Virus record (IMG/VR): IMGVR_UViG_2885028616_000003
Coordinates: 32,001-96,000 of that record
Length of the DNA stretch: 64,000 nucleotides
Direction: 5' to 3' (one strand)
From: a virus
Lineage: Duplodnaviria > Caudoviricetes
Below are positions 4,230 through 61,401 of the stretch, piece after piece. Numbering within the stretch: position 1 is the stretch's first letter; each line of letters opens with the position of its first letter. The translations under genes and the position numbers were made by a program. Below the pieces are notes generated by a model, which saw only the letters and a list, made by a program, of their open reading frames with translations, was not told where the DNA came from and did no database searches.

Positions 4230-4332
4230 CGCAAGGTGGCGAGGGTGCGGCTGAGCTGGGCTAGTGGCGCGAGTGTGTCCATGCGGGGGACGGTAGGTGC
4301 GGCGCTGGCGGTGGCGTGGCCGAGCGGGATTC

Positions 4333-4341
4333 TGTGGATAA
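4333..4341 (-). promoter_or_regulatory. DnaA-box-like 9-mer (TTATCCACA)
   Basis: tgtggataa on + strand, intergenic. Confidence 0.4.
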
Positions 4342-4373
4342 CCAGGGGATCTTGGCAGGATGCGGACAGCCTC

Positions 4374-4401
4374 TAGACCTTACAGCGCAACGCTGTATAG
4401 T
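4374..4401 (+). promoter_or_regulatory. Promoter (TAGACC...TATAGT) with palindromic operator TACAGCG-caa-CGCTGTA
   Basis: Perfect 7-bp inverted repeat at 4381-4397 between the -35 and -10 elements. Confidence 0.7.
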
Positions 4402-4434
4402 TGAGGGTGTCAGCAGGACACAGGGGAGGCCGAG

Positions 4435-15167: not shown

Positions 15168-18100
15168 CTATCCCCGCCGGCCGATGCGCAGGCTCTGCGC
15201 CTGCGCCATCTGCATCGACTTGAAAGCGGTCCGGACCTCGCGGGACAGGGCGGCGGCGGTGATCCCGTCGAAGTGCGCGTGGTACTCGTCGCCGCCGCCC
15301 GCGGTCGAGGCGGAGTCGGACAGCTCCAGCGGCGCCGCGGCCGCCGAGAGCGCCATGCGCAGGGAGTCCTCGTGCGGGTACACCGCTTCCCCGCCGCGGA
15401 AGTCGACCAGTTCGGGGCCGCGCTCACCGACCCAGGCGAGGCCTCGGCGGGCGTGGTCGGTCCCTTGCGCGTACCAGCCGGTGCGCTGGGAGTGCGCCCA
15501 CGCCCCCGCCGGGCTGCCGTAGCGGTGCTTGATGTAGTCCAGGCCCCACCGGATCTGGGTGGCCCAATTCGTTCGCCAGTCGGACCCGAAGCTGGCCATC
15601 TTGCCTGGCGGGAGGGCCTGCGGGATGCCGTACGCGCCCGACGAGGGGTTGCGGGCGTTCCACCGCCAGCCCGACTCCCGCTCCCACAGCCGGTTCAAAG
15701 GGGCGAACTGCGCCGCGGACCAGCCGAGGTCACCGAGCTGCGCCTGCGCGAACGCCTTCGGGGTGCCGCCCCCGTACCACGACCCGCCCTTGCCTGCGAT
15801 GTGCCGGTAGGTTCCGCCGGACCGCCACCCGGCGTAGCGGACAACGTCGCCGGTGTGGGGGGCGTGGATGAGGGCGTGGTCACCGCCCATCCCGGTCACC
15901 ATCATCACGTGGCCGCGGTGCGGGAAATAGAGGTCGCCCGGCATCGCCGCGGACCTGGTCGTCGCGGAGCCGTAGGCGATCTGGTCGTAGGTGACGCGGG
16001 GGATGTTCACCCCGGCCGCCTGCCACGCCCGCATGGTCAGGCCTGAGCAGTCCCAGGAGTCTGGGCCCGTGGCGCCCCACACGTATGGCTCACCGAGCTG
16101 GGCTTTGGCGAAAGCGACGGCCTTGGCGCCGCTGCCGTACGCCCCCGACAGCAGCGTGGTGAGGATGCCCGCACCGATCGCGGCGTGCCCGGAGGCATAC
16201 CCCAGCATCGACGCCAGCCCGACCGCGTTGCCCTCCCGGGCCTTGTTGATGGTGGCGGGCGGGTCACCCCGGTAGTGGTAGTCCTTCTTGAAGGTCGATC
16301 CGATCAGCCCGCCGCCGGCGAACGCAGGCAGCGTGTCCCGCCGGGGTCCGGGGAGGCCGCCGCCGGCGAACGCACCGCCAGCGCCCGGTACCGGGCCGCC
16401 GCCGGTGGTGTAGCCCTGCCCCTTGTAGATCGTGCCCTTGTTGCCCTCGTCGTTGATCGCGGTCAGCAGCGGCAGATACCTGCTGGTGGCGGGGGCGTTG
16501 ATGACCATCTCGCCCGCGCTGATGCGGGTGACCTTGTCGTCGGCGCGGGGCCCGCCACCACCTGCGATGACGCCGCCGCCGGCGTTGCGCAGGCTCGGCG
16601 CGAGGAGGTCGGCAAGGCCTGGGATCTTCGCCAGGTTCCCCAGGCCTTTCATGGAGAACTTGCCCTTGGCGTTCACGCTGACGTCGGTGCTGGTCTTCTT
16701 GGGGATCTTCACCAGCTGGTCGACGTACTTCTCCGCAGCCTTCCGGGACCCCAGGAACCGGGTGGCGAGGTCGATGAGCTGCTCGCGTTGCCCCTTCAGC
16801 TTCTTGACGTTCGCGTCGGTGACGCGGTTGTTGGTCACCAGGTCGTCGGAGTAGCTGTTCAGGACGCGGGCGCCCTGGAGGATGGTCTGCCGGTTGTTCA
16901 GCGCCGCTTGGGAGTTGCCCCAGAACGCGCGGCCGTTGGTGTCCAGCGCGGTCCGCCCGGCGGCGAGCGCGCTGTTGAAGTCGATGACTTCTTGCTGGTC
17001 GGCGATGAACCGGTTGGCGTTGGTGAGCAGCGCCTGGTTCTGCTGGCGGATCTTCTCGGTGAAGATCTGCGTCTGGAACGCGCCGGACCCAACCAACGCG
17101 CTGTACTGCGGGAACAGCGACTTGATCTTCTCGATGGACAGGTTGCTGAGGTCCAGTTGCGCCGCCATCCGGGAGAACGAGGTCGCGGCCGCGTCGGCCT
17201 GCCCGTTCTGCGCCATCTGCGTCAGCGTCGTGTCGAGCTGCTTGAACTTGTTGACCGCCTCCGAAAGCGGCGTGTTGTAGGCGCCGAAGGAGATGACGTG
17301 GAAGAACTCCGCGGCGGGGTGGTCGATCCACCTCTGATTCCACGACGGATTCGCGATGGACTCCGCGGCGGCGCGGAACTCCTCCAGGTTCGTCTTCCCC
17401 GAAAGCGCCCCGGCCTTGAACTGGTCGAAGAACGCGCCACCGAACTTCCCGGTCGTGGCGAGGGTCTGCATGGACCGGGTCAGCGACTCGGTGGACTGCA
17501 CGGTGCCGTTCTGGGCGTGCTGGAGCGCGTTCATCGCGTAGCCCATGCCGACCACGACACCGACCACGGCACCCAGGCGCGCCAGGCCCATGAGCGCGAT
17601 GCGGGTGGTCACGGCCGACCCGGACACGCCCATCATGTAGCCGCCGGTCGCCCGCAGGATCACCCCGAGCCGCAGCAGCCCCCCGGACGCGACCCCGGCA
17701 GCCGCGCCCGTGCCGGTCAACCCGGCGATCAACGAGGTGAATCCCAGGACCCGGACGGCCTTGGACACCAGGAACGCGGCCGCAGCAAGCTGGATCAGGC
17801 CGGGCGCGGTCCGCGCCATCGCCGCGAGCCCGTCGGCGAGGATCCGGATCACGGCAAGCTGCACGGCCGCGAGGGGGGCCAAGGCTTGCCCGACGTCGAT
17901 CAGACCCGAGGCCAGCGACCCGATCGTGTGGATCACGTCGGGGCCGGTCTGCTGCACGTACCCCATAAACCGGATGAACCCGGAGGACCCGGCGAGGCTG
18001 GTGCCCCACCGCTCGAACCGCACCGTCAGGGCGTCGACCGCGCCGAGCAGCAGGTTCGTGTACGGCAGGAACGCCTCGAAGATCCCGCCGACGCCGGTGA

Positions 18101-19916
18101 GGGTGTGCCCGGTGATCGACCCGAACTTCTCGATCGCGCGGGGCGCCTCAATGCTGGTCCGGGCGATGAACCGTGACCAGAACGGCCCGTCCAGCGCGAG
18201 CGCGGCCCGCGTCTCCAGGATCCGCATCGCCGCCGCCGACGACCGGGTCAGCGGGGAGAACTTGTCGAGCTGCATCGTGATGAGGCCGAGCCCGCCGGAC
18301 AGCACCGGCAGGACGTCGGGCTCCAGGTCGTTGACCCACCCCCGGTACTCCTTCCGGAACCGCTGCCAACTGTCCAGCAGCCGGTTCTCGGCGGGGGTGA
18401 GCTTGTCCATGGCGCGCCCCAGCCGCACGGTCGCGGCGGACGCGCCGTCCGCGGCGTGCGCGGACTGGCGCTGCGCGTCGGCCTGCTGCAACGCGGCGAT
18501 ACGGTCCTGGATCTGCTGGGTCCGCACCGCGCGCTGCGCGTCGGCGACCTGCTGCAGCGCGTCCTTCAGCCGCTCCTTCGCGGCGACGACCTCCTGGGTG
18601 CCCTCGACGCCGGCCTTGCGGGCCTTGGCCTCATCGGCGCGGAGCCGGTTGACCAGGATCCGCTGCTCTTTGAGCTGCTGGACCGCCTGGTCGTAGGCGA
18701 GTTTGGCTTCCTTTCGGTCGAGGTCGCGGTCTTTGCGCTGCTGCTGCGCGGCGGCGACCGCCTGCTTGGCCAGGTCGACCGCGAGCTGCGCCTGGTCCTT
18801 GTCGAGCTGGGTGGAGCGGGAGTCGCCGAGGACCTTGGCCTGCTTGGCCTGCGCGGCCGCGAGGCCGACCTGGGCCTTCTGGACGGCGAGGTCGTCCTGC
18901 CGTGTCGACCCGAGCTTCTCCAGTTCCCGCCGTGCCCGCTCGACTGCGAGTTCGTCACCGCGCAGGGACAGACCGGCGTCGATGAGCGAGTTCTGCATGT
19001 CCTGCAGCGACCGCGCGCCGTCCTGCCGGGCGCGGTTGAGATCGGTCTGGGCCTGGCGGGCGGCGGCCTGGGCCTGGGTGACCTGCCGTTCGGCCTGCGC
19101 CATCTGCATGGCCCGCAGCCGCGCCTGCTCGGTGGCGATCGCCGCGGTGTTCAGCGCGACCGCCCGGCCCCGCGTCGAGGTGGCGACCTGGTTGTCGGCG
19201 GTCTTCTGCGCCTGCAGCGCCTCGGAGATCCGGTGGACACCGGGAACCGCGACGGCGAGCATCCCGCCGATCCCGAGCCCGGCGGAGGTCGCGGCCGCGG
19301 CGATCCCGCCGATGCCCGCGGCCAGGGTCGCGCCGAGCGGGATGGACGCCAGCGCGGCCATCTGGATCCCAAGCATCATCAGCGCCGACGACGCCCCAGC
19401 AGTGTTCGCGCCGACCTGCACGTTCACCGACCGGCCGAACAGCCTGTCCGCCTCAGCCCGCAGCGCCAGCAGCCGCGCCATCGCGGCCGCGGTGTCGGCG
19501 TCCACGTTGATCGTGGCGTGGAACGGGCCGAGGTTCTCCAGCCGGCGGCGGACCCGTTCCAGCGACGCCTCGTCCAGCTTCACGCGGACATTGACGTTGG
19601 CGCGCGGCAGGTTCTTCAGCTTCGCTTCAAGCTCGGCCTTGGCGGCGCGCGCGATCTCAGCGCCGATCTTGCGGCCGAGACGCCCCCCGGCGAGCTCCAG
19701 CCGCGGTGTGGCGTCCCGCATCGCCTCCTCGAGGCGCCGCGGCGAGAACCCCGCCTTGGCGCCCTCGGCGATCGCGCGGCCCAGCACCCGGCCCGACGAC
19801 CGGCCGACCCTGTCGAGGGTCGGGTCGAGCCGCCGTTTGATCTCCTGCCCCCACGCCGCAGGATCGATCCGGGGCAGGACATCGATCTTGACTGATCCGC
19901 CGTCGTGCTCCGCCAC
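15168..19916 (-). CDS. Tape measure protein with C-terminal NlpC/P60 and lytic transglycosylase domains
   Basis: 1582-aa helical protein. 'GEPYVWGATGPDSWDCSGL' and 'RESGWRWNARNPSSGAYGIPQALP'. Confidence 0.95.
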   Translation of the reverse strand: MAEHDGGSVKIDVLPRIDPAAWGQEIKRRLDPTLDRVGRSSGRVLGRAIAEGAKAGFSPRRLEEAMRDATPRLELAGGRLGRKIGAEIARAAKAELEAKLKNLPRANVNVRVKLDEASLERVRRRLENLGPFHATINVDADTAAAMARLLALRAEADRLFGRSVNVQVGANTAGASSALMMLGIQMAALASIPLGATLAAGIGGIAAAATSAGLGIGGMLAVAVPGVHRISEALQAQKTADNQVATSTRGRAVALNTAAIATEQARLRAMQMAQAERQVTQAQAAARQAQTDLNRARQDGARSLQDMQNSLIDAGLSLRGDELAVERARRELEKLGSTRQDDLAVQKAQVGLAAAQAKQAKVLGDSRSTQLDKDQAQLAVDLAKQAVAAAQQQRKDRDLDRKEAKLAYDQAVQQLKEQRILVNRLRADEAKARKAGVEGTQEVVAAKERLKDALQQVADAQRAVRTQQIQDRIAALQQADAQRQSAHAADGASAATVRLGRAMDKLTPAENRLLDSWQRFRKEYRGWVNDLEPDVLPVLSGGLGLITMQLDKFSPLTRSSAAAMRILETRAALALDGPFWSRFIARTSIEAPRAIEKFGSITGHTLTGVGGIFEAFLPYTNLLLGAVDALTVRFERWGTSLAGSSGFIRFMGYVQQTGPDVIHTIGSLASGLIDVGQALAPLAAVQLAVIRILADGLAAMARTAPGLIQLAAAAFLVSKAVRVLGFTSLIAGLTGTGAAAGVASGGLLRLGVILRATGGYMMGVSGSAVTTRIALMGLARLGAVVGVVVGMGYAMNALQHAQNGTVQSTESLTRSMQTLATTGKFGGAFFDQFKAGALSGKTNLEEFRAAAESIANPSWNQRWIDHPAAEFFHVISFGAYNTPLSEAVNKFKQLDTTLTQMAQNGQADAAATSFSRMAAQLDLSNLSIEKIKSLFPQYSALVGSGAFQTQIFTEKIRQQNQALLTNANRFIADQQEVIDFNSALAAGRTALDTNGRAFWGNSQAALNNRQTILQGARVLNSYSDDLVTNNRVTDANVKKLKGQREQLIDLATRFLGSRKAAEKYVDQLVKIPKKTSTDVSVNAKGKFSMKGLGNLAKIPGLADLLAPSLRNAGGGVIAGGGGPRADDKVTRISAGEMVINAPATSRYLPLLTAINDEGNKGTIYKGQGYTTGGGPVPGAGGAFAGGGLPGPRRDTLPAFAGGGLIGSTFKKDYHYRGDPPATINKAREGNAVGLASMLGYASGHAAIGAGILTTLLSGAYGSGAKAVAFAKAQLGEPYVWGATGPDSWDCSGLTMRAWQAAGVNIPRVTYDQIAYGSATTRSAAMPGDLYFPHRGHVMMVTGMGGDHALIHAPHTGDVVRYAGWRSGGTYRHIAGKGGSWYGGGTPKAFAQAQLGDLGWSAAQFAPLNRLWERESGWRWNARNPSSGAYGIPQALPPGKMASFGSDWRTNWATQIRWGLDYIKHRYGSPAGAWAHSQRTGWYAQGTDHARRGLAWVGERGPELVDFRGGEAVYPHEDSLRMALSAAAAPLELSDSASTAGGGDEYHAHFDGITAAALSREVRTAFKSMQMAQAQSLRIGRRG

Positions 19917-27292: not shown

Positions 27293-28453
27293 TCACGAAC
27301 CGGAACCGTTCGAGGCCACCGAGGACTTCGGGTCCATCAGCGTCCCGCCGAACACATACCGGACCTTGTAGTCGATGCTGTCGGTGCGGAAGTCGCCGTC
27401 CATCGGGTCGACCGCACCGCCACCGACGCGGACGGCGTTCGGGGACTGCATGAACAGTTCCGGGGTCTCGTGCCCGGTGAGGAACCCGATCTCCATCGCC
27501 GGGCGGCCCACGCTCGGGTTGGCGAACAGGTACCAGGCGGTGTTCCCCGAGGTGGAGTCGATGATCGGGAGCCACGGGTCCACGACCAGCTTGACCCTGT
27601 TCCGCATCCAGTTGGTGACGCGGAGCTGGTTGTTGCCGGTGCCGTCGCCGCCGCCAGCCGCGGCGATGATCTCGGTGGCGTTGATGATGTTCAGCGCCGT
27701 GATCTCCAGCGCCGGCGGCACGACCAGGGTGACGGCGTCGATGTAGATCGGGTTGCCGTCCGAGTCCTTCTGCGCGGCGAGGACCCGGAACGCGGTGTTC
27801 AGGCCCTCGATGCCCAGGGCGGGGTTGCCGGTGACCTGGTTGGCGTTGCCGGAGGAGTAGAACGTCGCGTTCGGGCCGCTGCTGGAGGCGAACAGGGTGG
27901 TGAAGAACTTCTCCTCGGAGAACTTCGCGGAGTTGGCGAGCCGGTCGGGCATGTCGCGCAGCGCGTCGAGGTCGTCGTTGATGAAGTCCTCCCACGTGAA
28001 GGGGAGGCGCTTGCCGAACTTCTTGACCGAGTACTCGTACTTGCCGTCGGTGACGGCGGCCGCCGGGTACTCGGTGTTCTGCGGCACCTCGTCCAGGACG
28101 GCCTCGCCGCCGTCGAGGGTGAACCGCTTGACCTTCCTGAAGTCCCGGACGCGGCCGCGGCGGGCGATCTGGTCCCACATCACGTTCCGGTGCTGGTACT
28201 TGGCCAGGAGCTGCCGGTCGAGGATGTCGGCGAACAGGTACTGGAAGTCGCTGGTGGTCATCGCCTCCTGGAGGCGGTCGACCTTCTGGCGGCCGTTGAG
28301 GACGTCGGCGTACAGGCGGCCGGCCTCCAGGAGCGCCCGCTTGTAGTTGGGGTCGTTGCGGCCGCCGCGGACCCGGCGGCCCTCCCGGGCGTACAGGGCG
28401 CGCTCGGAGGCGTCCCTGTGGTTGTAGCTCTCGATCAGGTCGAGGATTTCCAT
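27293..28453 (-). CDS. Major capsid protein (Mu gpT-like)
   Basis: 'TTSDF', 'DFR', 'KFGKRLPFTWEDFINDDL', 'LVVPPALE', 'IDYKVRYVFG'. Confidence 0.92.
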   Translation of the reverse strand: MEILDLIESYNHRDASERALYAREGRRVRGGRNDPNYKRALLEAGRLYADVLNGRQKVDRLQEAMTTSDFQYLFADILDRQLLAKYQHRNVMWDQIARRGRVRDFRKVKRFTLDGGEAVLDEVPQNTEYPAAAVTDGKYEYSVKKFGKRLPFTWEDFINDDLDALRDMPDRLANSAKFSEEKFFTTLFASSSGPNATFYSSGNANQVTGNPALGIEGLNTAFRVLAAQKDSDGNPIYIDAVTLVVPPALEITALNIINATEIIAAAGGGDGTGNNQLRVTNWMRNRVKLVVDPWLPIIDSTSGNTAWYLFANPSVGRPAMEIGFLTGHETPELFMQSPNAVRVGGGAVDPMDGDFRTDSIDYKVRYVFGGTLMDPKSSVASNGSGS

Positions 28454-28562
28454 GGGTGATCCTTCTGCTGCGGGCGCTCCGCGCCGAGGGCATGCGAAAG
28501 CCCCCGGACCCGTGGGGGCGGAGGCGAGGAGAAGAGAGGAGACCGCCGGGGCGGTCAGACGG

Positions 28563-28937
28563 TCAGTTGGACAGGCGGACCCGGATCGTGCCGGTCGCGC
28601 CGGCCGCGATGAGGTTCCCCGAGGTGTAGCCGGCGGGCTCGACCGCGTGGCCGACGAACCGGCCGCTGGAGGTCTTGGAGATCGGCGGGTCGTTGGCGTC
28701 GACGTAGTACAGCTTGTCGCCGGGCGCGACCGCGGAGTCGGATCCGGTGGTGCCCTTCACGCTCAGCAGGTGCACGCCCTGGAAGGTCACGGACGTCTTG
28801 CCGTTGGCGTCCTCGGTCGTGGTGGCGACGCCGACGAGCTCGCCGTAGCGGACCGGGTCGCCCGACACCGGGGACGTGGGGTGGGAGCAGGTGACCGACA
28901 GGTCGGCGCCCTGCTTGAAGACCTCGTTCTTCGCCAT
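28563..28937 (-). CDS. Capsid cement/decoration protein (DUF2190-like)
   Basis: 'MAKN...SGDPVRYGELVGVA...GTIRVRL'. Confidence 0.85.
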   Translation of the reverse strand: MAKNEVFKQGADLSVTCSHPTSPVSGDPVRYGELVGVATTTEDANGKTSVTFQGVHLLSVKGTTGSDSAVAPGDKLYYVDANDPPISKTSSGRFVGHAVEPAGYTSGNLIAAGATGTIRVRLSN

Positions 28938-28950
28938 GCTGCTGTCTCCT

Positions 28951-30732
28951 TCAGCGGCCCGTGGCCGCGATCTTCGCTTCGTCGGCGGTCATGCCGATGT
29001 CCTGGAGCGACTCGGCCAGCGCCTTGTCCAGGTCGCCGTCGCTGTCGCCCGCCGGGGTCGGGTCGGAGGTAAGGCCGCGGGGCAGGCCGTAGCCGCGGGC
29101 CTCGTCCAGCTCGGCCAGGTAGGACTTGTGGTCCTGGATCGCGGTCTTGACGGCCTCGCCGAAGGCGGTCTCGTCGAGGGCGCCGTCGTCGCCGGTCGGG
29201 AGCGTGACGGTGGCCTCGCGCAGGACGCGGGGGTGCGCCTGCGTCGGCAGCCCGGACGTGGCGAGCGACGCCTCGCACAGGGTGCGGGCGCGCACGAGGT
29301 TGTCGCGGGCCTGGTCGCGCTTGCCGGCCTCGGCGAGCGCGGTCTCCAGCGTCTCGATCTTCTGGCCCTGCGACTCGATGAGCTGCGCCGCCTGGTCCAG
29401 GCGGCCGATCGCCTCGTCGAGGCGGGTCTTGGTCGCGGCAGCCTCGTTGAGCGTGCTGAGCTGCTCGTCGCTGATCTCGGGCATCGCGCCCTCCTTCATC
29501 GTCTTGGGCGCGGGCTTGCTGCCCGGCGCGTCCTTGGCCTTGGCCTTCTTGGCCTTCGGGTCGTCCTCGCCCTCACCGTCGGCGGGGGCGTCCTTGCCGG
29601 CATCGCCGGTGTCCTCGTCGTCCTTCTTGGCGAACAGGAAGGGCGGCTTCTTCCCCGCCTCCGACATCGGCTCCTGCCCGCCGTCCTCGTCGGGCGGGAA
29701 GGACCAGGGGCCGCGCTGATACAGCTGCGGCGCGTCCTTCTCCAGCCGGGCGACGAGTGTGCCGAGCGCGTCCCCAAGCGCCGAGGAGAGAGTGATGCGC
29801 TCGTCGCGGGTGAGGCGCCCGTCGCAGTACATGTCGTCGGCGAGGATCGTGAAGGCCGTGTGGGTGCGCGCTTCGATCCGGGCCCCGATCGTGGCGCCGG
29901 CCTCCCGCAGCTCCTCGCGGCTGGGCGGGACGGCCGACTCCTTCGCCGACGACTTCGTCCAGTCGGCGGGGATCAGGTCGCTCTTCCCGAGCGCCTTGGC
30001 GCGCTTGATGATGTGCGCGCGGATCTTGTCGTGGTCGGCGCCGCCGCGACCGACCGCGCGGATCGCGTTGCGGAGGTCCTGCTCGTCGGCGATCGGGTAC
30101 GCGGGGTCACCGTCGGGGTTCTTCATCGCGTGGCCCTTGCCGAGCATGGCCTTCATCTGGGCGGCGTCGTACTTCGCCTCCCACAGCCGCACGGCCTGAG
30201 CATTGGCGTCGGTCTGCTCGCGGGCGGACTCGATCAGCTCCAGCACCCGACCACCCGCTCCAGCGCGGGTGACCCAGTCGACGGAGATGCCCTCGTTCAG
30301 GGACTTCACGATCGGGCCCTCACGCCCTTCGGCCTCACCGTGCTCTGCGACACCCGTGGCCCTGATCGACAGGCCAACGTGTTCGGCGAACGTCGGGTTC
30401 AGCAGTTCCTGCCACTGCGGGAAGACCTGCACGTCCGCGACCAGACCGTTCTCGGCCTCGTCCCAGACGGGGTCGGAGACGAACACGCCTGCCCAGTCCT
30501 TCACTGACCGTTCCGGCCGCTCGGCGGACTCGGTCAGGGTCGGGTGGTCCAGGTATTGCTGGGTGCCTGCAGGCCAGACCTTGGGGCCGTCGCGCTCCAG
30601 TACCTCGGGGCCGTAATAGCCCGATGAGCCCCATCCCGCCCGGATCAGGAGCACTCGGTACCGGCCGGACCCGTCGCCCTTCGGAGTGAGGGTGGCAGTG
30701 GGGAACGCTTCGTTGAGCGTAAGCCGGTCCAT
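28951..30732 (-). CDS. Capsid maturation protease/scaffold fusion
   Basis: 'YLDHP', 'GLSI', 'SVDWVTRAGAGG', with a coiled-coil C-terminus. Confidence 0.85.
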   Translation of the reverse strand: MDRLTLNEAFPTATLTPKGDGSGRYRVLLIRAGWGSSGYYGPEVLERDGPKVWPAGTQQYLDHPTLTESAERPERSVKDWAGVFVSDPVWDEAENGLVADVQVFPQWQELLNPTFAEHVGLSIRATGVAEHGEAEGREGPIVKSLNEGISVDWVTRAGAGGRVLELIESAREQTDANAQAVRLWEAKYDAAQMKAMLGKGHAMKNPDGDPAYPIADEQDLRNAIRAVGRGGADHDKIRAHIIKRAKALGKSDLIPADWTKSSAKESAVPPSREELREAGATIGARIEARTHTAFTILADDMYCDGRLTRDERITLSSALGDALGTLVARLEKDAPQLYQRGPWSFPPDEDGGQEPMSEAGKKPPFLFAKKDDEDTGDAGKDAPADGEGEDDPKAKKAKAKDAPGSKPAPKTMKEGAMPEISDEQLSTLNEAAATKTRLDEAIGRLDQAAQLIESQGQKIETLETALAEAGKRDQARDNLVRARTLCEASLATSGLPTQAHPRVLREATVTLPTGDDGALDETAFGEAVKTAIQDHKSYLAELDEARGYGLPRGLTSDPTPAGDSDGDLDKALAESLQDIGMTADEAKIAATGR

Positions 30733-31499: not shown

Positions 31500-32534
31500 T
31501 CAGGTGAGGTCTTTGAGCGGGACGACGGTGTACGAAGGGCGCCAGCCGGGGTTGTCGCGGCGCCGCGCGAGGTCTGTCCAGGCGACCTGGCCGGTGTCGA
31601 GCAGGTGCAGCCGGCCGGGGCCCATGATGCGGAGCTGGTCGGCGCGGGGCAGCGCACGGAACACGGCCTCGGCGTCCGGGGTCGCGTCGGTGGGCTCAGT
31701 GCCGGGGAGGCCGAGGTCGGCCCAGGATTTGAGGACGGGGACGCGGCGGCAGCGGCCGGCGGGGTGGTCGAGCGGCCCCGGTTCGGACAGCGGGTAGGTC
31801 GTGCCGTGCAGCGCCCAGCAGCTCGGGCATACATCGGTGTCCAGGCGGGAGATCCAAGCCCAGCCGGACAGCAGGTCCGCGGCCGTGTCCTGGGTAGCTT
31901 GGGCGGCGGCGCGGTGCGCGTCCATGATCTCGGTGCGGGCGACCAGGAGCGTCCGGGCGAGCGCGGCGCTGGAGTGCTGCTGCGCGCCGTTGAGGACCTG
32001 CTCGATCGCGCGCCGCGGGTCAGTGGAGCGGTGCCCGCGGATGACCTCGCCGCGGATCGCATCGCCGATCTGGCCAGGCATCGACTGCAGCGTCTCGGCC
32101 GCGGCCTTGCGCGCACGGCGGGCGAGGTCGGTGATGTCGTCGTCGGCGAGGGCGGCGACGCCGTCGGTGAGGCCCACCCCGGGCGGTAGCTGCGAGACGA
32201 TCATGGCGGCTTGTGCGGCGGCCGCGGATCTGGCGGCTTCCTGCGCGGCGGTCTCGATCAGCGCGGCGGCGAGGTCGGCGAGCCGGACGAACGTGAACTG
32301 GAGGCCGGCGAACGCGATCTGGAGCCGGAACGAGGCGTTGAGCTGGCGGCGGGTCGGCCACGCTGCGGCGGCCGCGGCGACCAGCCCGGCGAGGATCGCC
32401 GTGAGCTGCGCGTCCTGCGCTGCCCACGAGGTCGCCCAGGCGGCGGTGAGGTCGCGGGTGACCTGGTCGAGGCGGGTGTCGGTCGCGGCGCGGTCGGCCG
32501 CGACGGCCTGAAGCGTCGCCGGTGTCGGCGGCAT
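31500..32534 (-). CDS. Minor head protein (Mu gpF/SPP1 gp7-like)
   Basis: 'ARTE', 'CPSCWALHG', 'DHPAGRC'. Confidence 0.9.
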   Translation of the reverse strand: MPPTPATLQAVAADRAATDTRLDQVTRDLTAAWATSWAAQDAQLTAILAGLVAAAAAAWPTRRQLNASFRLQIAFAGLQFTFVRLADLAAALIETAAQEAARSAAAAQAAMIVSQLPPGVGLTDGVAALADDDITDLARRARKAAAETLQSMPGQIGDAIRGEVIRGHRSTDPRRAIEQVLNGAQQHSSAALARTLLVARTEIMDAHRAAAQATQDTAADLLSGWAWISRLDTDVCPSCWALHGTTYPLSEPGPLDHPAGRCRRVPVLKSWADLGLPGTEPTDATPDAEAVFRALPRADQLRIMGPGRLHLLDTGQVAWTDLARRRDNPGWRPSYTVVPLKDLT

Positions 32535-34228
32535 CAGGCGTTCGCGGGCTCGGGGACCTCGGCGTCCTTGGCCGTGGGGTCGTTGTCTCGCCGGAGCCCT
32601 GCCCGCTTCTGGCCGAGCGCTCCGGCAGGGTCTTCGCCGCGGTTGAACGCATCGATCGCGGCCTGCCCCGCCGCGCCGAGCGAACCCTGCGGTGAGAGGA
32701 ACTCTCCGTCGTCGCCGGTGAGCTGGTCGATGATCTCGTCGATGTTCTTCACGCCGAGGGCGTCCAGCAGCAGACGCGCCACCACGAGAGGCGGCAGGTA
32801 GGTGGTCTGGTCGGCGAGGGTGATGGCCTCGATGACCTGGGCGGGGTTGACGTCATCGAGGTCGGGCCAGGTGATGTCGACCGTGCGGTCGGTGTCGCCG
32901 TCGAGTTCGATGCGTTCGAGGCCGTCCTCGTCGAGGGTGACCGTGCCGGACAGGGCGCCCATCGGGGCTTTCACGGCCTGGTCGATGACGTAGTCGAGGA
33001 TGGTGCGGCGGACGTCGGTCCATAGTTCGCGGCGCATCTGCATGGCCAGCTCGGTGGGCTGGTCGAGGGTTTGTGCGGTGGCGCGGGAGCCGGTGACGCC
33101 GGGGTCGCCAAGCAGCATCGTGACCGGGAGGTCGAGCGCGGCGGCGATCATCGCGGCGAGCGGCCTCCCGGACTCGGAGTCGATCGTCGCGCCGCTCTTG
33201 GGGATGCTTTCCAGGGCCATGTCGGGCGGCAGCATCGCGGTCGCGCCGGCGGAGTTCGGCTCCCCCGTGAGGCGGTCGTGGCTCGGCGCGGCGGCGATGC
33301 GTGCGCGGGCCTGCGCCTGCTTGCGGCCCGGCGTGGTGAGCCGCCACGCGAACCGGCTCAACGACTTGATGAGGCGGGCCCAGTCCGTCAGGAACTCGGT
33401 GTAAGCGCGAGCCCAGTCGACGGCGGCGTAGGAGTCGGGGATGCCCCACTTCCAGTGGAGCGGCGAGTTCACGGCGACGTGCAGGACCGGGGCGTCCCAG
33501 AACACCTCGACGAGACCGCCGTCGCCCTGCCCGGCGAACGACATGCGGCGGGGGCGGAGGCGTGGCCGGTAGCCGAGCGCCGGGTAGTAGGCGATGCGGC
33601 GCCGGTCCACGACACCGGAACCCGTCTGCTCTTCCTCGTACCACTCACGCCGGTAGAACCACGGCTCGCTGCGGTCCTGCGGGTTGGTGATCACATCAGT
33701 GATCTCGTCCCACGGAATCGTCCGCACCTGCACCCGGCCGGTCTTCGGTCGGGTGAACAGCGCGAAGAACAGGTTCCCGTCGCTCCCGAGGGCCCGCTCC
33801 AGGTCCTCGCACGCACCCAGGGAGGAGAACGTTCGCCGGTTCGACGGGTCGGCCAGGAACCGCTGGACGACGTCGTTGACGTCCTGCTCCCCCGGCCGCT
33901 TGCCCTGCGCGCGGGCGGAGGTCTGGACGCCCTGCCCGAACACGTAGCTCGCGCGGAGCGACAGCCCTCTTTTGATCAGTGGGTTCTTCAGGGCCATGAT
34001 CCGGCACACGGCCGTGATCTGCCGCAGCCCGTCCCGGCTGAACTCCTGGTCCGCCATGGCGGTGAGCCGCTGCCAGCCCGGCTCGTTCATCCGGCTTTCG
34101 AGATCGGACAGCGTCTCGGTGAGGTGGGACACCATCGCCCGCTCAGCGCGCACAGCCTCAGCCAGCTCGGTGCGGCCGGTCACCCGGTAGAAGGTCTCCT
34201 GAAGACGGTCGAGGACGGGCACGGCCAC
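32534..34228 (-). CDS. Portal protein
   Basis: ~565 aa between TerL and the minor head gene. 'NPLIKRG', 'DGNLF'. Confidence 0.85.
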   Translation of the reverse strand: MAVPVLDRLQETFYRVTGRTELAEAVRAERAMVSHLTETLSDLESRMNEPGWQRLTAMADQEFSRDGLRQITAVCRIMALKNPLIKRGLSLRASYVFGQGVQTSARAQGKRPGEQDVNDVVQRFLADPSNRRTFSSLGACEDLERALGSDGNLFFALFTRPKTGRVQVRTIPWDEITDVITNPQDRSEPWFYRREWYEEEQTGSGVVDRRRIAYYPALGYRPRLRPRRMSFAGQGDGGLVEVFWDAPVLHVAVNSPLHWKWGIPDSYAAVDWARAYTEFLTDWARLIKSLSRFAWRLTTPGRKQAQARARIAAAPSHDRLTGEPNSAGATAMLPPDMALESIPKSGATIDSESGRPLAAMIAAALDLPVTMLLGDPGVTGSRATAQTLDQPTELAMQMRRELWTDVRRTILDYVIDQAVKAPMGALSGTVTLDEDGLERIELDGDTDRTVDITWPDLDDVNPAQVIEAITLADQTTYLPPLVVARLLLDALGVKNIDEIIDQLTGDDGEFLSPQGSLGAAGQAAIDAFNRGEDPAGALGQKRAGLRRDNDPTAKDAEVPEPANA

Positions 34229-34241
34229 CCCCTCGGGCTGC

Positions 34242-35684
34242 TCAGTACGGGCTAATCTCGAAGTCGAGCTCTTCGTCGAGGTCCTCGTCCTCGACCAGCT
34301 CATCCGGTGGCGGGACGTGTGCCTTGGCGAGCATCACCGCGTCCGCCCGGTCCGGGGACGGGACGCCGCGCTTCTTCATGTCGTCCTTGGACTCGATCAG
34401 GACCTGGCCGCGGGCGGTGAACTTGTACTTCACCGTGCCGAGCTGCGCGGCGAGCTCGTCGTCATCGGGGTCGATGTCGATGTCGCCGTCCTCGAACCGC
34501 TGCCGCAGCCCCCACCACCACTCGGCGCGCGCGTTGGCGTAGTGCTCGGAGTCGAGCGCGGCGGCACCGGACTGCATGTCGACGACGTCGTGGCCGGCCT
34601 CGAGGAGCTGGTCGACGACGCCGGAGCCGACGCCGACACCGTCCACGCGGATCTCGTCGACGCCGTGTTCGCGTTTGGCGACGATGACGTGGCCGGTGGT
34701 CTCGGTGGTGCGCTGCTTGGCATGCTCGCCCACGACCCGGACGACGGGCCCCCGGGCGAGGGCGAGGATGGTCTCGTCCGCCCCGAACCGGGCGACGTCC
34801 ACACCGAGAACCGAGTGGGGGCCGGGCTCCAGCGCGCGGGCCTGCGCGGCTTCGATCCACCGCGGGGAGATGAGGGTGTCGTCGCCGATCTCGGGGAACT
34901 CGCCGAGGCACTTGGCGACGAATCGTGGTGAGTTCTCGCCCCACCGCTTGCGCTTGTCCTCGACCCATTCCGGGGACAGCATCAGGTCCCGGACGTTGTC
35001 GGGGACGTCCTCGCCGGTGAAGTTCGGGGTGTCGTATCCGCTGATGCGGATGACCTTCCACCCGGAGCCGGGCTTGCAGACGTTCCCGAACTCGGTGTTG
35101 GGGTCGTCGGGGTTCCCGATCGCGAGGATCCGGCACGTGTCGGTGGTGGTGATCGCTTCGATGGCGGTCCACAGCTGTTCCGGCACGCCGCAGGCTTCGT
35201 CGATGACCACCAGGACGTACTTGCGGTGGATGCCCTGGAAGCCGTGCTGGTCTTGGTCGGCGGGCTTGCGGCCCCACCCGACGAGGGTGCCGTCGTCGAG
35301 TTTCCACTCGTCCGATTGAAGGACCCGGCCGGGCAGCGGCTCGCCCTTGGCGTTCTTGGCGGCCTTGCGGATCTCTTCCCAGAGGATCGCGTGGACCTGC
35401 GCGTAGGTCGGTGCAGTCGAGACCACAAAGGCTTCGCCCGGCGGGTGGACGTCGATCCACCAGCATGCGATCTGGGCCGCGATGTGGGACTTCCCGGCGT
35501 TGTGGCAGGACTTGACGGCCGTCCGTTTGTGGTCGACGACCGCTTCGGCGATCTCCCGCTGTTTCGACCACAGGTAGCCGCCGAGCCGGTTCTGGACCCA
35601 TCCCACGGGATTGCGGAGGTAGGGGCTGACCGGCGGCGGGTCGAACTGCCGCGCGGCGTACTCCCATGCGAGGTCAACGGCCAC
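34242..35684 (-). CDS. terL: Terminase large subunit
   Basis: Walker A 'SCHNAGKS', Walker B 'VVIDEA', 'IGNP', nuclease motifs 'GVDVARFG' and 'SPDRADA'. Confidence 0.96.
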   Translation of the reverse strand: MAVDLAWEYAARQFDPPPVSPYLRNPVGWVQNRLGGYLWSKQREIAEAVVDHKRTAVKSCHNAGKSHIAAQIACWWIDVHPPGEAFVVSTAPTYAQVHAILWEEIRKAAKNAKGEPLPGRVLQSDEWKLDDGTLVGWGRKPADQDQHGFQGIHRKYVLVVIDEACGVPEQLWTAIEAITTTDTCRILAIGNPDDPNTEFGNVCKPGSGWKVIRISGYDTPNFTGEDVPDNVRDLMLSPEWVEDKRKRWGENSPRFVAKCLGEFPEIGDDTLISPRWIEAAQARALEPGPHSVLGVDVARFGADETILALARGPVVRVVGEHAKQRTTETTGHVIVAKREHGVDEIRVDGVGVGSGVVDQLLEAGHDVVDMQSGAAALDSEHYANARAEWWWGLRQRFEDGDIDIDPDDDELAAQLGTVKYKFTARGQVLIESKDDMKKRGVPSPDRADAVMLAKAHVPPPDELVEDEDLDEELDFEISPY

Positions 35685-56880: not shown

Positions 56881-57109
56881 GGTGCAGTTGTTTGAAGAGG
56901 TGCAGTTGATCTCTTAGGTGCTTGTAAACGTCTGGGGGGGTACGGGGCCCACCCCCTTTAGGACCTAAGGGGGTACACAGCCCACCCCCTTTGAAGCGGT
57001 TAGGGGGTACAGGGCCCACCCCCTTAGTCCAAAGGGGGTATGGAGCCCACCCCCTTTGGACTGGCGGGCGCCCGGTTGTCCACAGGCCCGAGACGCCGGG
57101 TTGTCCACA
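56881..57109. other. Putative phage replication origin: four palindromic iterons, two DnaA boxes and an AT-richer strip
   Basis: GGGGGTA-N4-GCCCACCCCCTT four times at 56935-57057 with ~31-34-bp spacing. TTGTCCACA at 57076 and 57101. GGTGCAGTTG repeats at 56881 and 56899. Confidence 0.8.
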
Positions 57110-57113
57110 GGGA

Positions 57114-57488
57114 TCACGCGACCTCCTCGGCTGCCACGATCCGCGCGAACGCGGGCAGTTCGGGCAGCCGGAAGTCCATCGCGTGCCCCTTGGCCGCGTA
57201 CACCGGATCGCCGTTCTTGTCCCGCTTCCACACCACGCGGACATCCAGCCCGCGCTCGGCGAGCCGCTGGAGGATCTTCTTGAGCCCCTGCGGGGACACC
57301 TTCGCTACCTGGCACAGCCGGTCGTACAAGTCGCAGTCGTCGTTCTTGAAACGGCGCATGTCCCGGGCCCGCTCGTCCAGGACACGGTCCGCGATCGTCA
57401 GGAGCACGGCGAACTCCTTGTCCGACAGCTCCGCGCCCGCAGGCGTACGACGCCACTCGATGACGTCGCCCACGAGCTTCCCGCTCAA
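57114..57488 (-). CDS. Replication initiator-like winged-helix protein
   Basis: 'LSDKEFAVLLTIAD...VSPQGLKKILQRLAERGL'. Adjacent to the iterons. Confidence 0.7.
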   Translation of the reverse strand: MSGKLVGDVIEWRRTPAGAELSDKEFAVLLTIADRVLDERARDMRRFKNDDCDLYDRLCQVAKVSPQGLKKILQRLAERGLDVRVVWKRDKNGDPVYAAKGHAMDFRLPELPAFARIVAAEEVA

Positions 57489-57686: not shown

Positions 57687-57956
57687 GTGACTGCACTCCC
57701 TCTCCGTGCGAGCATGGCCACCGTGAGTGAGGGAGAGGACTCCGTGGAGACCAGGCTGAAGAAGGCCGTGCGCGGGTACCGGCGCGCCACCCAGGCGCGG
57801 ATCGAGCTGCACGAAGCCATCAAGGCCGCCGCCGCCGGCGGCAAGACGCCGAAGCAGATCACGTTCCTGATCGACCACGAGTACGACGTCGCGCACGTCT
57901 CGCGGATCATCCACGGCAAGGTCGGCGGCAAGCGGAAGCCCCCCGCCAAGGACTGA
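57687..57956 (+). CDS. Small basic HTH-like regulator, divergent from the rep-like gene
   Basis: 'LHEAIKAAAAGGKTPKQIT...YDVAHVSRII'. Confidence 0.7.
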   Translation: MTALPLRASMATVSEGEDSVETRLKKAVRGYRRATQARIELHEAIKAAAAGGKTPKQITFLIDHEYDVAHVSRIIHGKVGGKRKPPAKD

Positions 57957-58034
57957 CCTGCTCGCGCGCCCTCCAGCGCGGCTCGTGCTGTCCGTCTCCC
58001 CCATCGATCCCCCGATCGTCGTTTTTCCTCATGT

Positions 58035-59050
58035 GGTCTGGTCTGTCGGCTAGGCCGGGGACGGTCAGCGGCGACCAGGCCTGGCTAGTCGTTCCGGCGC
58101 GGTCCGGCTTGCTGCGGTCCGGCTTGTCGTTCTGGCGAGGCCCGTGCAGGGCGCGGCTAGTCGGTTCAGGGGCGGGCACGAGACGGGATGGGTAGTCGGG
58201 ATGGCAGGGCGAGGCTGGTTCTGGCAAGGCAAGTCGTTGCGGCATGGCGAGGACGGGCAGGGCCAGACAAGGCATGTCGGTGTGGCGAGGTGCGGCTGGG
58301 GTCGACGTGAGCTGTCGATCTGGTATGGCATGGCGAGGGCAGGCGAGGATCGGCAAGGCATGGCCTGGGTTGGCGAGTCGGCATGGGATGGCGAGGCCGG
58401 ATTAGGTACGTCGACGCGGTCTGGCGAGGCCGGGCTAGGCCTGTCGGCAGCGGGCAGACGGGGAAAGCAGGAGAAGGGACATGTCGGACTGAAAGGACCA
58501 GGCATGGCGAGTCGGCAAGGGCAGGCTTGGTCGAGACTTGGCGAGAAATGGCGAGTCGTGGCTATGTGGCGAGGACGGGCGGGGCCAGGCAAGGCAAGTC
58601 GGCGCGGCGAGCAGGGGCGGGGCCTGACTTGTCGAACGGGCACGGCGAGGTAAGGCGTGAGTTGGCAAGTCGAAGCGGCCTGGCATAGCTCGACATGTCG
58701 CTGAGGCCGGGCGGGTGCGAGGCATGGCACGTCGGATGGGCACGGCATGGCACGGTCTGGCATGGCCCGTTCGGGGCCGGGCGAGAAGGGGCATGTCGGT
58801 GTGGCACGGCCCGGGTCGGCGGGGACAGGCGCCGGCGGGACGCGGCAAGGCTTGTCGCCGGAGGCGAGGGCGGGACGCGATGGGGGCGGGTGCACGTCAT
58901 GACAAGTCGGCATGGCGAGGCGAGGGTTAGGCACGGACCGGCGAGGCGCGTCGGGCACGGTGCGGCGGGGTCCAAGCGTGGCGCGATTGGGGCTGTCGGC
59001 ACGGCCGGGTCTGACCAGGGCGGGCGGGACTGGGCCTGTCGTGTTGGCTA
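58035..59050 (+). repeat. Non-coding array of 24 units GTCG-N4-(GGYNN)n, candidate guide-RNA array
   Basis: 25 GTCG delimiters from 58045 to 59038, with a 5-nt GGY period inside units. 14 of 24 units are exactly 8+5n nt long. Confidence 0.9.
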
Positions 59051-59114
59051 GCCGCATCGTGGTTCGCGGCGTCGCGGGTAGGCCGCCCGGACTGTGCCGG
59101 GCGGCCCGGTCACG

Positions 59115-59831
59115 CTACTGCTTGTCGAACGCGAGGAGCTCGAACTTGCCGTCCGAGCGGCCCCGGTCCGCGCCGATCCCGATGTCCTCGCCGCGCTCCC
59201 AAATCCGGCCCCAGGCCTCCATCGGCAGGAAGTCGTCGTGGACCCGGACCGTGAACTCCAGAAGCGGCTGCTCCACGTACTCGACCCGGTTGATCGAGGA
59301 ACGCGGCCCCTGCGGGGTCTTCACGTGCTTGATGCGCTCCTCGACCCCGTGCGGCTCCGTCACCCCGAGGTCGATGTACACCTCGGGGACGAACACCCTT
59401 TCGGCGAGGGTGGACATCAGCCCCTTCCGGAACCCCTTGGTGATCTTCGACTTGCCGGGGAAGTCCGTGCCCGGGTAGGCGGAGTTGGCCCACTCCTTCA
59501 GCGCGGCCTTCATGCACCGCCCCTCGTACCCCAGCGCCCCCGTGCCGGGGATGCGCTTGAAGCCGTTGACCGACACTTCCGCGTCCCCCGACTCCATCAC
59601 CGCCTGCGCCAGCTCGTCCGCCGACGGCTGCCGGTCGGGGAACCGCTCCTTCAGCGTCGCGTCCGCCAGCTCCTGCAGGTCCCGGTCCCCCAGCTCCAGG
59701 CGGGTCTTCAGCCAGCCCTTGATCACGCTCGGGGACGAGGGGACCCCACCGACCAGCTTGTCGAGAACCTGCAGCCGCACCACGTACACCGCGACGTCCG
59801 ACTTGGTCCCGAACACGTCCGTAGCACTCAT
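59115..59831 (-). CDS. Solo Cas7/RAMP-like protein
   Basis: N-terminal strand then 'LVGGVP', 'YEGRCMKAALKE' helix, thumb-like hairpin 'ERIKHV...RSSINRVEYV', C-terminal G-rich loop 'GIGADRGRSDGKF'. Confidence 0.8.
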   Translation of the reverse strand: MSATDVFGTKSDVAVYVVRLQVLDKLVGGVPSSPSVIKGWLKTRLELGDRDLQELADATLKERFPDRQPSADELAQAVMESGDAEVSVNGFKRIPGTGALGYEGRCMKAALKEWANSAYPGTDFPGKSKITKGFRKGLMSTLAERVFVPEVYIDLGVTEPHGVEERIKHVKTPQGPRSSINRVEYVEQPLLEFTVRVHDDFLPMEAWGRIWERGEDIGIGADRGRSDGKFELLAFDKQ

Positions 59832-60244
59832 CGTCCCGTCCCCTCCGAATGGACCGCCATCGCCGGCGCGGCGATCGCGTTCTGCGTCTTCACGCGCTCG
59901 GCTTCGAGTGCGCGCTTCAGAGACCCGTTCACGGTCTCCAAGTCCTTGATCTCGTTGCGGGCCGCCTCCAGGTCCGCCTCCACCGCAGAGCGGCCCTCGA
60001 CCTCGCGGCGGACCTCGTCGAGCACGACGCCGGCGCGGCCGTAGGCGGCGAACGTGGCCTTCACCTCGGTCGCCTTCTGCACCGTCAGGTACAGGTCGAA
60101 CACCTCGCGCGGGGTCTTGCCGCGCAGGCTCTTGCCGGTGATCGCCTCGATGTTCCGGCGCGCTTTCTCGTCGGTCTTCAGCAGCTCCACCACGGCGTCG
60201 AACTCCTCCGCCGAGTACTCCTGCGCCCTGCGTCGTCTCGCCAT
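59828..60244 (-). CDS. Helical/coiled-coil protein translationally coupled to the Cas7-like gene
   Basis: AGGAG RBS and ATGA overlap at 59828-59831. Confidence 0.75.
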   Translation of the reverse strand: MARRRRAQEYSAEEFDAVVELLKTDEKARRNIEAITGKSLRGKTPREVFDLYLTVQKATEVKATFAAYGRAGVVLDEVRREVEGRSAVEADLEAARNEIKDLETVNGSLKRALEAERVKTQNAIAAPAMAVHSEGTGR

Positions 60245-60292: not shown

Positions 60293-60652
60293 TCACCCCG
60301 GCGCGGCCTGGTCCAGGTGCGCCCACTGAGGGCCGGTCGGGCACTCGATGTGCCGCGCGGCGCACCAGTGCAGCCCGGCGACGGTGACGCCGCCCTCCAC
60401 GTACGCCAGCGCCGCCAACCCGCGGACCAGAGCGGCGAACGCCGCAGCCGGGCGGCCGTCCTTCGCCCCGTACAGCAGCACGTCACCGGCCGCCCCGGCG
60501 CGCATCAGCTCCACCACCCACGCGGCGTCGTTCGCGCGCTGCTCGGGGGTCCAGCCGCGGATCTCCTGCATGCGCTGCGGCACCGCCACCAGCAGGCCAG
60601 CGGCGAGGTTCTCGTCCAGGCCCTCGTGCCGGGCGCGCTCGTCCTGCATCAC
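60293..60652 (-). CDS. Hypothetical protein
   Basis: 'GDVLLYG...LAALAYVEGGVT..GLHWC'. Confidence 0.7.
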   Translation of the reverse strand: MMQDERARHEGLDENLAAGLLVAVPQRMQEIRGWTPEQRANDAAWVVELMRAGAAGDVLLYGAKDGRPAAAFAALVRGLAALAYVEGGVTVAGLHWCAARHIECPTGPQWAHLDQAAPG

Positions 60653-61401
60653 AGCCCCCGTTCCGCGCGGTACTGCGCCGCGAGCCGCTGCACCGTCCGG
60701 TAGCTGAGCCCCATACGCGCGGCAATCTCCTTCTGCACCAAGCCCTGCTCGTGCAGCTCGGTGAACCGGTCGAGCCGCCTCTTGGCCACATGCGCGGGCG
60801 TCTTCTGCGTACCGGCGTTGGCACGGAGTTCGATCCGCCACAACCAGGACGGCTCCTCGCCCTCGTGCCACAGAGCCAGGAAACGACGGCGGGCGGCGGT
60901 GAGCCGCTGCGCGAATGCGCTGTAGCTGATGCCAAGGGCATCGGCGGCGGCCTGGTGGGTGCCACGCGCAGCGAGAGCGTGCACGGCGGACCGCTCGACC
61001 GGGGTGAGCTGGGGCCAGATCTGCCACAGGGCCGCCTGGTCGACGATGCGGGCCTCGGGGCTGGGGGTGTGACGGATGACCGTTTCCCAGTAGATGGCGT
61101 ACTTGGGCATCGGCCGGTAGTCCTTGGCGGTGCCGTGGTGGTGGAGCTCCTTCTGCAGGTTCCGGGCGATGGCGTTCTGCGCGGTGATGATCAGTTCGTT
61201 GGGGGTGGGGCGCTCGTCGGCGCTGTAGAGGTGTTCGGCGATCGCTGACCAGGCGATGGCGTAGCGGTCGCGGGGATCGGTGGTGATGCCGTAGAGACGC
61301 CGGGTGGAGAACGATGCGAGGCGTTCGAGGTCGGCGAGGTTGTAGCCGTGCCGCAACTCGTGGACGTCGCTGGAGGGTGGAGAGCAGGCGAGCTGGGTCA
61401 T
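60649..61401 (-). CDS. Sigma-factor-like/HTH transcription regulator
   Basis: Region-4-like 'QLTPVERSAV...AADALGIS...RLTAARRRF' plus a second HTH 'QKEIAARMGLSYRTVQR'. Confidence 0.75.
   Translation of the reverse strand: MTQLACSPPSSDVHELRHGYNLADLERLASFSTRRLYGITTDPRDRYAIAWSAIAEHLYSADERPTPNELIITAQNAIARNLQKELHHHGTAKDYRPMPKYAIYWETVIRHTPSPEARIVDQAALWQIWPQLTPVERSAVHALAARGTHQAAADALGISYSAFAQRLTAARRRFLALWHEGEEPSWLWRIELRANAGTQKTPAHVAKRRLDRFTELHEQGLVQKEIAARMGLSYRTVQRLAAQYRAERGL

Follow-up and report, generated by a model that had tools for sequence, protein, structure and literature searches.

A probable VIPR locus with a GTC-punctuated pentamer array in a Streptosporangiales prophage

The Viral Interference Programmable Repeat (VIPR) class was described in 2026 preprints, which report its discovery, code and seven types (bioRxiv 10.64898/2026.04.26.720920), 21 structures determined by cryo-electron microscopy (bioRxiv 10.64898/2026.04.26.720927), competition with satellites (10.64898/2026.10.15.759431), and the recovery of 99 VIPR-like clusters from entropy periodicity (10.64898/2026.10.21.760802). 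According to these preprints a locus typically comprises vipr and one vap gene, and most loci are proviral (~71% are viral or proviral). One Vipr protomer occupies each YNNGG repeat of the array RNA, and each GGY is sequestered by two adjacent protomers; the NN pairs form base pairs with one strand of DNA, and every third target base is skipped (10.64898/2026.04.26.720920, 10.64898/2026.04.26.720927). Binding represses transcription; the natural targets are competing phages, prophages and satellites. The subject of this account is the region 58045-60244 of a 64,000-nucleotide stretch of viral DNA (positions 32,001 to 96,000 of IMG/VR record IMGVR_UViG_2885028616_000003; "the window" below is this whole stretch). 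It is very probably a VIPR locus, lodged in a prophage of a Streptosporangiales actinomycete. It adds a member to a class already described and is not a new kind of system; its placement is in the class as a whole, and it is assigned to none of types I-VII.

Experiments have dealt mainly with type II systems of Proteobacteria, such as those of Escherichia phage SUSP1 and of a Pseudomonas fulva prophage (bioRxiv 10.64898/2026.04.26.720920, 10.64898/2026.04.26.720927); small RNA sequencing of loci belonging to types III and V and expressed in E. coli is also reported. All seven types are reported to have an alternating GGY/NN or related consensus and DNA-interacting accessory proteins (10.64898/2026.04.26.720920). 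According to the same preprint, small RNA sequencing confirmed only ribozyme-interspersed and single-vrRNA architectures (the array RNAs being called vrRNAs), and the "staggered" arrays of its fig. S18 are not among them.

The present locus has much in common with VIPR systems: a minimal RAMP with G-loop, thumb and helical bundle; an adjacent non-coding GGY/NN array; a probable operon of vipr with a single vap-like gene; a proviral setting with no nearby cas genes or CRISPR; and a hypervariable region of candidate guides. The SUSP1 locus itself is found in KT454805.2, with genes at 28031-29061 and GGTNN arrays on both sides, and a comparison with it brings out the differences. 1) Vipr is 238 amino acids (aa) long here and 195 in SUSP1. 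2) Array and vipr occupy opposite strands here, and in SUSP1 the arrays are on the gene strand. 3) There are ~27 units of 4-8 pentamers here, separated by nothing other than GTC, while SUSP1 vrRNAs are ~100 nt long with 9-16 repeats. 4) One terminal hairpin serves the entire array, while each SUSP1 vrRNA has its own structured pseudoknot tail. 5) The second G of the pentamer is relaxed, and two RNA-contacting residues of SUSP1 Vipr are not conserved. 6) The putative Vap here is a coiled-coil protein that matches nothing detectable. The SUSP1-like layout of type II (9-16 repeats, a tail to each, gene strand) is absent.

The Vipr protein and its kinship

An initial annotation of this DNA, made from the letters alone, had seen RAMP/Cas7 hallmarks in the 238-aa product of the minus-strand gene now called vipr (Table 1). 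The translation and the predicted secondary structure agree with the motifs that it quoted: VGG is at residues 27-29, after a strand at 13-22; GRCMKAALKE is at residues 104-113, within a helix spanning 104-118; and the G-loop GIGADRGRSDGKF is at residues 218-230. An AlphaFold2 model built on 80 diverse homologues (predicted local distance difference test score, pLDDT, 91.1; predicted template modelling score, pTM, 0.86) shows an RRM core, an inserted helical region (about residues 34-80), a thumb-like β-hairpin at 162-187 and the glycine-rich loop: the minimal RAMP of the VIPR class.

Structure comparison bears out the proposed fold. Foldseek against the PDB returns 154 matches at E≤1e-3, led by Csm3 and Cas7; among the matches listed, all are RAMP subunits of type III and type VII CRISPR effector complexes. 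An independent all-against-representatives structural alignment also places Csm3 first (Z 12.6, 153 residues, 3.8 Å), followed by type VII Cas7, Cas7-11, Cmr4 and Csf2 (Z down to 10.5), and its top 36 rows are all CRISPR RAMPs. A search of BFVD matched a few RAMP-like proteins of viruses. For Vipr there was no match in Pfam, PHROGs or PADLOC; a profile search of PDB sequences found Csm4 G-loops alone, weakly (E 0.04-0.9); and a single-sequence search of the PDB returned only matches to repeat proteins, which were judged spurious.

The likeness to the Cas7 subunits of Class 1 effectors (Csm3, Cmr4, Csf2, type VII Cas7, Cas7-11) is one of fold (Z 10-12.6 over 130-180 residues), of a similar G-rich loop motif and, presumably, of polymerising along RNA at a fixed step; sequence identity is only 9-19%. 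The step itself would differ: 5 nt with three bases sequestered here, 6 nt with one base flipped in Cas7. Vipr is, moreover, encoded by a prophage, with no CRISPR repeat handle and no Cas5, Cas6, Cas10, Cas11 or Cas1-2 partners. What defines a Class 1 effector is Cas7 together with a CRISPR array and partner cas genes, and that combination is not found here; the fold alone is common to both.

Is the protein then related to a Vipr of demonstrated function? At the level of profiles it is homologous to one. Profile-profile alignment with hhalign of the 80-sequence alignment of the 238-aa family and a 34-sequence alignment of SUSP1-Vipr homologues gives a probability of 95.8% and E 6.6e-9 over 132 columns that include helix-1, the thumb hairpin and the G-loop, which supports the likeness to "VIPR"-type systems that the initial annotation had suggested: such systems exist, in the preprints cited above. 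(The depth of the alignment matters: a shallow one of 41 sequences showed no link to SUSP1, and the deeper one was needed.) SUSP1 R179, which stacks on Y3, has as its counterpart R223, a residue without variation in the 80-sequence alignment; A221 and D222 stand in the places of D177 and W178, through which SUSP1 Vipr contacts G1 and G2. This replacement may be tied to the relaxed second G of the pentamers. The family is a sizeable one, with 307 close homologues, of which all that are named come from genera of the Streptosporangiales (Actinomadura, Nonomuraea, Microbispora, Streptosporangium and others), and 658 cluster representatives at 50% identity.

A solo Cas7 of type III or IV, orphaned in a prophage by the decay of a CRISPR-Cas system and lying by chance beside unrelated low-complexity G-rich DNA, would explain why Csm3 and Cas7 are the best matches among solved structures and Csm4 G-loops the only profile matches among PDB sequences. 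The host genome has a Cas1 besides, full-length (C1:4847478-4848347, locus L036; PF01867, E 9.8e-89). That gene is ~4.1 Mb distant from the prophage, however, and the host probably possesses a CRISPR-Cas system of its own that is not linked to the VIPR locus. The initial annotation had stated that neither a cas1/2/3/5/6/8 gene nor a repeat-spacer CRISPR occurs in the window. The second part stands for the full 64-kb window, in which no array of the CRISPR type was found; the first holds for what PADLOC was given, namely Vipr and four neighbouring products and not every open reading frame (ORF) of the window, among which no cas model matched (Vipr, Vap and two neighbours had no match at all, and the fifth product had weak non-cas matches only). 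The profile match to SUSP1 Vipr is also far better than that to any Cas protein by sequence, and the two genes and pentamer array form a consistent context: the array stays beside the gene over a range of protein identities from 95% to 37%, which is not how unrelated low-complexity DNA behaves. An orphan Cas7 is very improbable.

The pentamer array: grammar, ends and turnover

The initial annotation had also drawn attention to ~1 kb of GGY triplets alternating with variable dinucleotides past the vipr stop. Such an array is indeed there, and its end lies 78 bp from the stop codon at 59115. Within it the autocorrelation of GG reaches 0.32 for lag 5 and 0.20 for lag 10, with negative values at lags 2-3; the lag-5 excess has a z of 10.6, the 99th percentile for all 300-nt windows on both strands of the 64 kb being 3.4. 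Pentamers run in register for 4-11 units at a time, the preprint's own minimum for such arrays being at least four YNNGG or GGYNN units.

There is a second layer of order, which the initial annotation lacks: each unit is a GTC followed by 4-8 pentamers of consensus GGYNN. Pooling the window with nine related arrays gives the statistics of this grammar. In-register pentamers have G at 97% in the first position, G at 70% in the second and Y at 61% (C 50%) in the third, followed by two nearly uniform positions. The interval from one GTCG to the next is 3 mod 5 in 64 of 150 cases, where 30 are expected (p = 2.6e-10); unit lengths peak at 28, 33, 38 and 43 nt, corresponding to 5-8 pentamers, six being commonest; and the NN that immediately precedes each GTC is rich in A and T. 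(The array was under-detected by Tandem Repeats Finder and by a scan for coherent period-5 power, because the 3-nt GTC inserts shift its register.)

The GGY strand is opposite to vipr, so that array and gene converge. A 330-aa ORF runs across the array on the minus strand, and is judged non-coding because its GC content is flat across the three codon positions (0.69/0.70/0.71). Rfam finds no known RNA family in the window, hammerhead ribozymes included.

Some units resemble each other. Those at 58233-58275 and 58555-58597 (43 nt each) have NN strings akin to one another, GC-AT-GA-CG-AG-CA-AA-AT and GC-GT-GA-CG-GG-CA-AA-AA; a stretch of 36 nt occurs twice with 78% identity (58241-58276 and 58327-58362); and GGCGA is common to several units as the second or third pentamer. 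These likenesses point to duplication followed by divergence, or to guides for homologous sites. In another locus (L009:2371-2449, reverse strand) a single unit contains a pure (GGCTT)x10 run and then ordinary variable pentamers, which suggests that pentamers inside an array can expand by replication slippage.

Both ends of the array are distinctive. The leader region contains a weak terminator-like hairpin (58005-58018). At the other end, two invariant blocks, GGCTAGCCG ... CGGCGTCGC, are present in all nine aligned loci, and their consensus fold has one covarying pair, U:A in eight loci and C:G in the window; this motif is a candidate 3' tail shared by the whole array. The tail runs to ~59075 and ends 40 bp from the vipr stop. 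Between it and the gene lies a GC-rich inverted repeat, likely a bidirectional terminator; a consensus terminator scan passed it over because it has no T-run.

The initial annotation had suggested asking whether a pentamer array always flanks homologues of the gene. It does: among the homologous loci whose sequence reaches far enough beyond the gene, 11 of 11 have an array on the opposite strand that follows vipr directly (two metagenome contigs were too short to be counted). The loci with an array after the gene are L001-L005, L008-L012, L037 (the closest relative) and Microcystis phage Mae-JY09; in all ten actinobacterial genome loci, and likewise in L037, the array is punctuated with GTC. 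The region 4001-5264 of the cyanophage (L033, PP395641.1) holds a Vipr homologue of 36.6% identity, an overlapping upstream gene and, on the opposite strand where the linear record ends, a G-rich array with GTCG punctuation and a much weaker pentamer periodicity than those of the actinobacterial arrays; all are annotated as hypothetical.

How these arrays change is seen by comparing the window with its closest relative, in Actinomadura bangladeshensis (contig JAAGLI010000213.1), whose Vipr is 95% identical. The DNA covering vap, vipr and the terminal motif is 91.7% identical over 1234 bp, and the first ~220 bp of the array region (57942-58164) are 76% identical, but no alignment is possible for ~850 bp of the array interior, with the exception of a 143-bp stretch at 71%. 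Of the units, no more than two 5'-proximal ones and the terminal one can be recognised in both. A hypervariable interior between conserved ends is what one expects of fast-evolving guides set in a conserved scaffold.

Might the tract instead be a structural DNA element with no guide function, such as a G-quadruplex-prone minisatellite or a recombination hotspot, beside an RNA-binding RAMP with some other role? GG runs 3 nt apart could form two-tier G-quadruplexes, and the pure pentamer expansion in L009 is typical of slippage. Slippage alone would, however, homogenise the units, yet NN is close to uniform while the first G is 97% fixed; both the GTC punctuation and the terminal motif are kept from genus to genus; and the partner protein is homologous to one that has been shown to bind such repeat RNA. 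A purely structural element is extremely improbable.

Prophage setting and neighbouring genes

The portal, large terminase, capsid protease and minor tail genes in the window identify the surroundings as a prophage (Table 1). XRE and helix-turn-helix (HTH) regulators surround the VIPR locus. The distribution of vipr is patchy: 6 of 201 genomes of the family have it.

Table 1. Features of the locus and of the prophage structural module, in window coordinates
Feature	Position	Strand	Basis or remark
vipr, 238-aa minimal Cas7-like RAMP	59115-59831	-	translation, AlphaFold2 model and profile homology
Candidate vrRNA array, ~27 units	58045-59037 (approx.)	+	GG periodicity, GTC punctuation
Array leader region	57957-58044	+	57942-58164 76% identical to L037
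Array-terminal motif GGCTAGCCGY ... RCGGCGTCGC, 5-7 bp hairpin possible	59046-59075	+	9/9 aligned loci
GC-rich inverted repeat, 10-bp arms, 6-nt loop	59081-59106		between convergent array and vipr; dominant stem, centroid RNA fold
vap-like accessory gene, 138 aa	59828-60244	-	stop overlaps vipr start by 4 nt (59828-59831)
Small basic gene, 89 aa	57687-57956	+ (array strand)	GC at third codon positions (GC3) 0.89, coding-type; directly upstream of array
Large terminase	34242-35684	-	prophage structural module 12935-35684
Portal	32534-34303	-	prophage structural module
Head maturation protease	28951-30732	-	prophage structural module
Capsid/protease-like protein	27293-28453	-	prophage structural module
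1582-aa ORF, likely tape measure	15168-19916	-	prophage structural module
Minor tail protein	12935-14188	-	prophage structural module

The partner of vipr in its probable two-gene operon is the vap-like gene. The AlphaFold2 model of its product (pLDDT 73) consists of helices only, an N-terminal helical domain and a long coiled coil. In 9 of 10 actinobacterial loci the gene directly upstream of vipr is a homologue of it with 39-49% identity; in A. bangladeshensis a called 138-aa gene occupies the same position, within the 91.7%-identical stretch. PADLOC finds nothing for the Vap-like protein, and Pfam and PHROGs give only sub-threshold coiled-coil matches; a fold search returned no significant match, and the similarity to small terminases that appeared in it (E ~0.4-1) is not counted as evidence. 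The 89-aa gene on the other side of the array may or may not be part of the system; a small gene with a similar C-terminal motif occupies the same position in L002/L008 and in L005; tblastn found no significant match for the 89-aa gene, and Pfam gave sub-threshold matches only.

Two further features of the neighbourhood may be recorded. A 118-aa gene (60293-60649, minus strand) lies between a 250-aa HTH/sigma-r4-like gene (60649-61401) and the vap-like gene; with a GC3 of 0.95 it is strongly coding in character, Pfam and PADLOC give no match for it, and it is overlooked when only the longest ORF per frame is used. Directly downstream of a 124-aa gene (57114-57488, minus strand) are four copies of a ~30-nt quasi-palindromic unit (56931-57058; core GGGGGTAC...CCCACCCCC, spacing 31-34 bp), which look like the iterons or operators of a prophage replication or regulatory region.

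What the array may do

In the initial annotation GGY was taken as scaffold and the NN pairs as a gapped guide. That is the published VIPR mechanism, and homology to SUSP1 Vipr allows it to be transferred, provisionally, to this locus; the gap, for which a range had been entertained, would by the published rule be a skip of 1 nt on double-stranded DNA. The course of events would be as follows: 1) The plus strand of 58045-59075 would be transcribed into an RNA made of GGYNN pentamers. 2) Vipr would polymerise on this RNA, one protomer per pentamer, its G-loop, thumb and helix-1 burying each GGY and exposing each NN. 3) The exposed NN pairs would read double-stranded DNA, one target base being skipped per repeat. 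4) The bound complex would repress transcription of a competing phage, prophage or satellite, with the co-translated helical Vap-like protein assisting. Transcription, filament assembly, the 1-nt skip rule and silencing are here carried over, by analogy, from the published type II systems.

Several considerations weigh against this reading of the locus as a working VIPR system. The PDB matches of the Vipr model include no solved Vipr structure and hence permit no direct Vipr-Vipr structural comparison. Single-sequence comparisons are weak: the 238-aa family against the SUSP1 sequence by itself gives E 0.0024 and a probability of 12% in hhalign. With D177 and W178 not kept, recognition of RNA may differ in detail. 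Transcription of the array, its strand and its processing are predicted only. Units of 4-8 pentamers, as against the 9-16 of characterised vrRNAs, would make the specificity of a single unit marginal in a 9.5-Mb genome. And targets under the 1-nt skip rule were not found above chance, in searches of low power.

The initial annotation had proposed searching with NN strings, gaps of 0-3 nt and shuffled controls; in the host's own genome, searched in this way, the strings did no better than shuffled ones. Across its 9.5 Mb, 14 clean units read with a 1-nt skip found 13 perfect matches, compared with 11.0 for order-shuffled guides; there was no enrichment with skips of 0 and 2, and the skip-3 matches were the array itself. 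A 24-base pattern from a 12-pentamer unit had no match in IMG/VR; two 16-base patterns had 10 and 9 matches there, which were judged to be chance (host GC 30%-69%, unrelated ORFs). No match was found for a 24-base pattern in 401 genomes of the order, with up to two mismatches allowed, nor for one 16-base pattern in 71 genomes of the genus. When 44 guides from 10 arrays were compared with the related loci and the window, the one match, of a cyanophage guide to a Nonomuraea locus, was likewise judged to be chance. With 10-16 specified bases per unit and few patterns scanned, these searches provide no argument against targeting as such.

Some of the same facts would suit a VIPR relative that works unlike type II: its ~1-kb RNA might stay uncut and be coated as short filaments, or it might target RNA, or follow another skip rule. 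A GTC every 4-8 pentamers with a single conserved tail per array, convergence of array and gene, a second pentamer position that is only 70% G, contact residues for G1 and G2 that differ from those of SUSP1, and the failure to find 1-nt-skip targets all go in this direction; so do the non-type-II architectures that the discovery preprint reports, including "staggered" arrays that its small RNA sequencing does not confirm. Those arrays, as far as their mention in the text allows a comparison (10.64898/2026.04.26.720920), fit contiguous GTC-delimited units. On the other hand, all seven published types are reported to use the GGY/NN or a related consensus and accessory proteins that interact with DNA, and the target searches were too small for their failure to carry much weight. 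Such a departure from the published mechanism is unlikely.

To return to a VIPR system that targets DNA by the published rule: what would the GTC punctuation mean for it? GTC is, in effect, a GGY with its second G replaced, and in this clade it would end each filament or mark a cut. The array would then yield ~27 "mini-guides" of about one helical turn each (in the commonest case six protomers and ~12 specified bases). Short GTC-bounded units, convergence, a single tail and a relaxed second G set the array apart from those of characterised type II systems. It is conceivable, though doubtful, that the Streptosporangiales and cyanophage loci form an uncharacterised variant of VIPR, with one long convergent transcript and ~27 GUC-delimited mini-guides that have no structured tail of their own. 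The mini-guides may act once the RNA has been cleaved at GUC, or else as short filaments in a string, and specificity may come from many weak guides acting together. (Cutting at GU/C by the RNase E of the host, as mycobacterial cleavage motifs might suggest, was considered and not adopted; the idea is weakened by the same punctuation in the array of a phage reported from a cyanobacterium.)

The locus extends the VIPR class to a prophage of a high-GC actinomycete, and makes it possible to name a protein family whose members, in all the source names shown, are called "hypothetical protein". It also puts on record an array grammar of another sort: units of 4-8 pentamers with GTC punctuation, an array convergent with the gene, one shared terminal hairpin, and conserved ends around a hypervariable interior. 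If the short units are independent guides, two questions follow: what is the minimum specificity of a gapped code, and how are guides renewed without Cas1-Cas2? Near-complete turnover of the array interior between phages whose Vipr proteins are 95% identical would, if the mini-guide proposal is true, imply an unknown mechanism of guide renewal.

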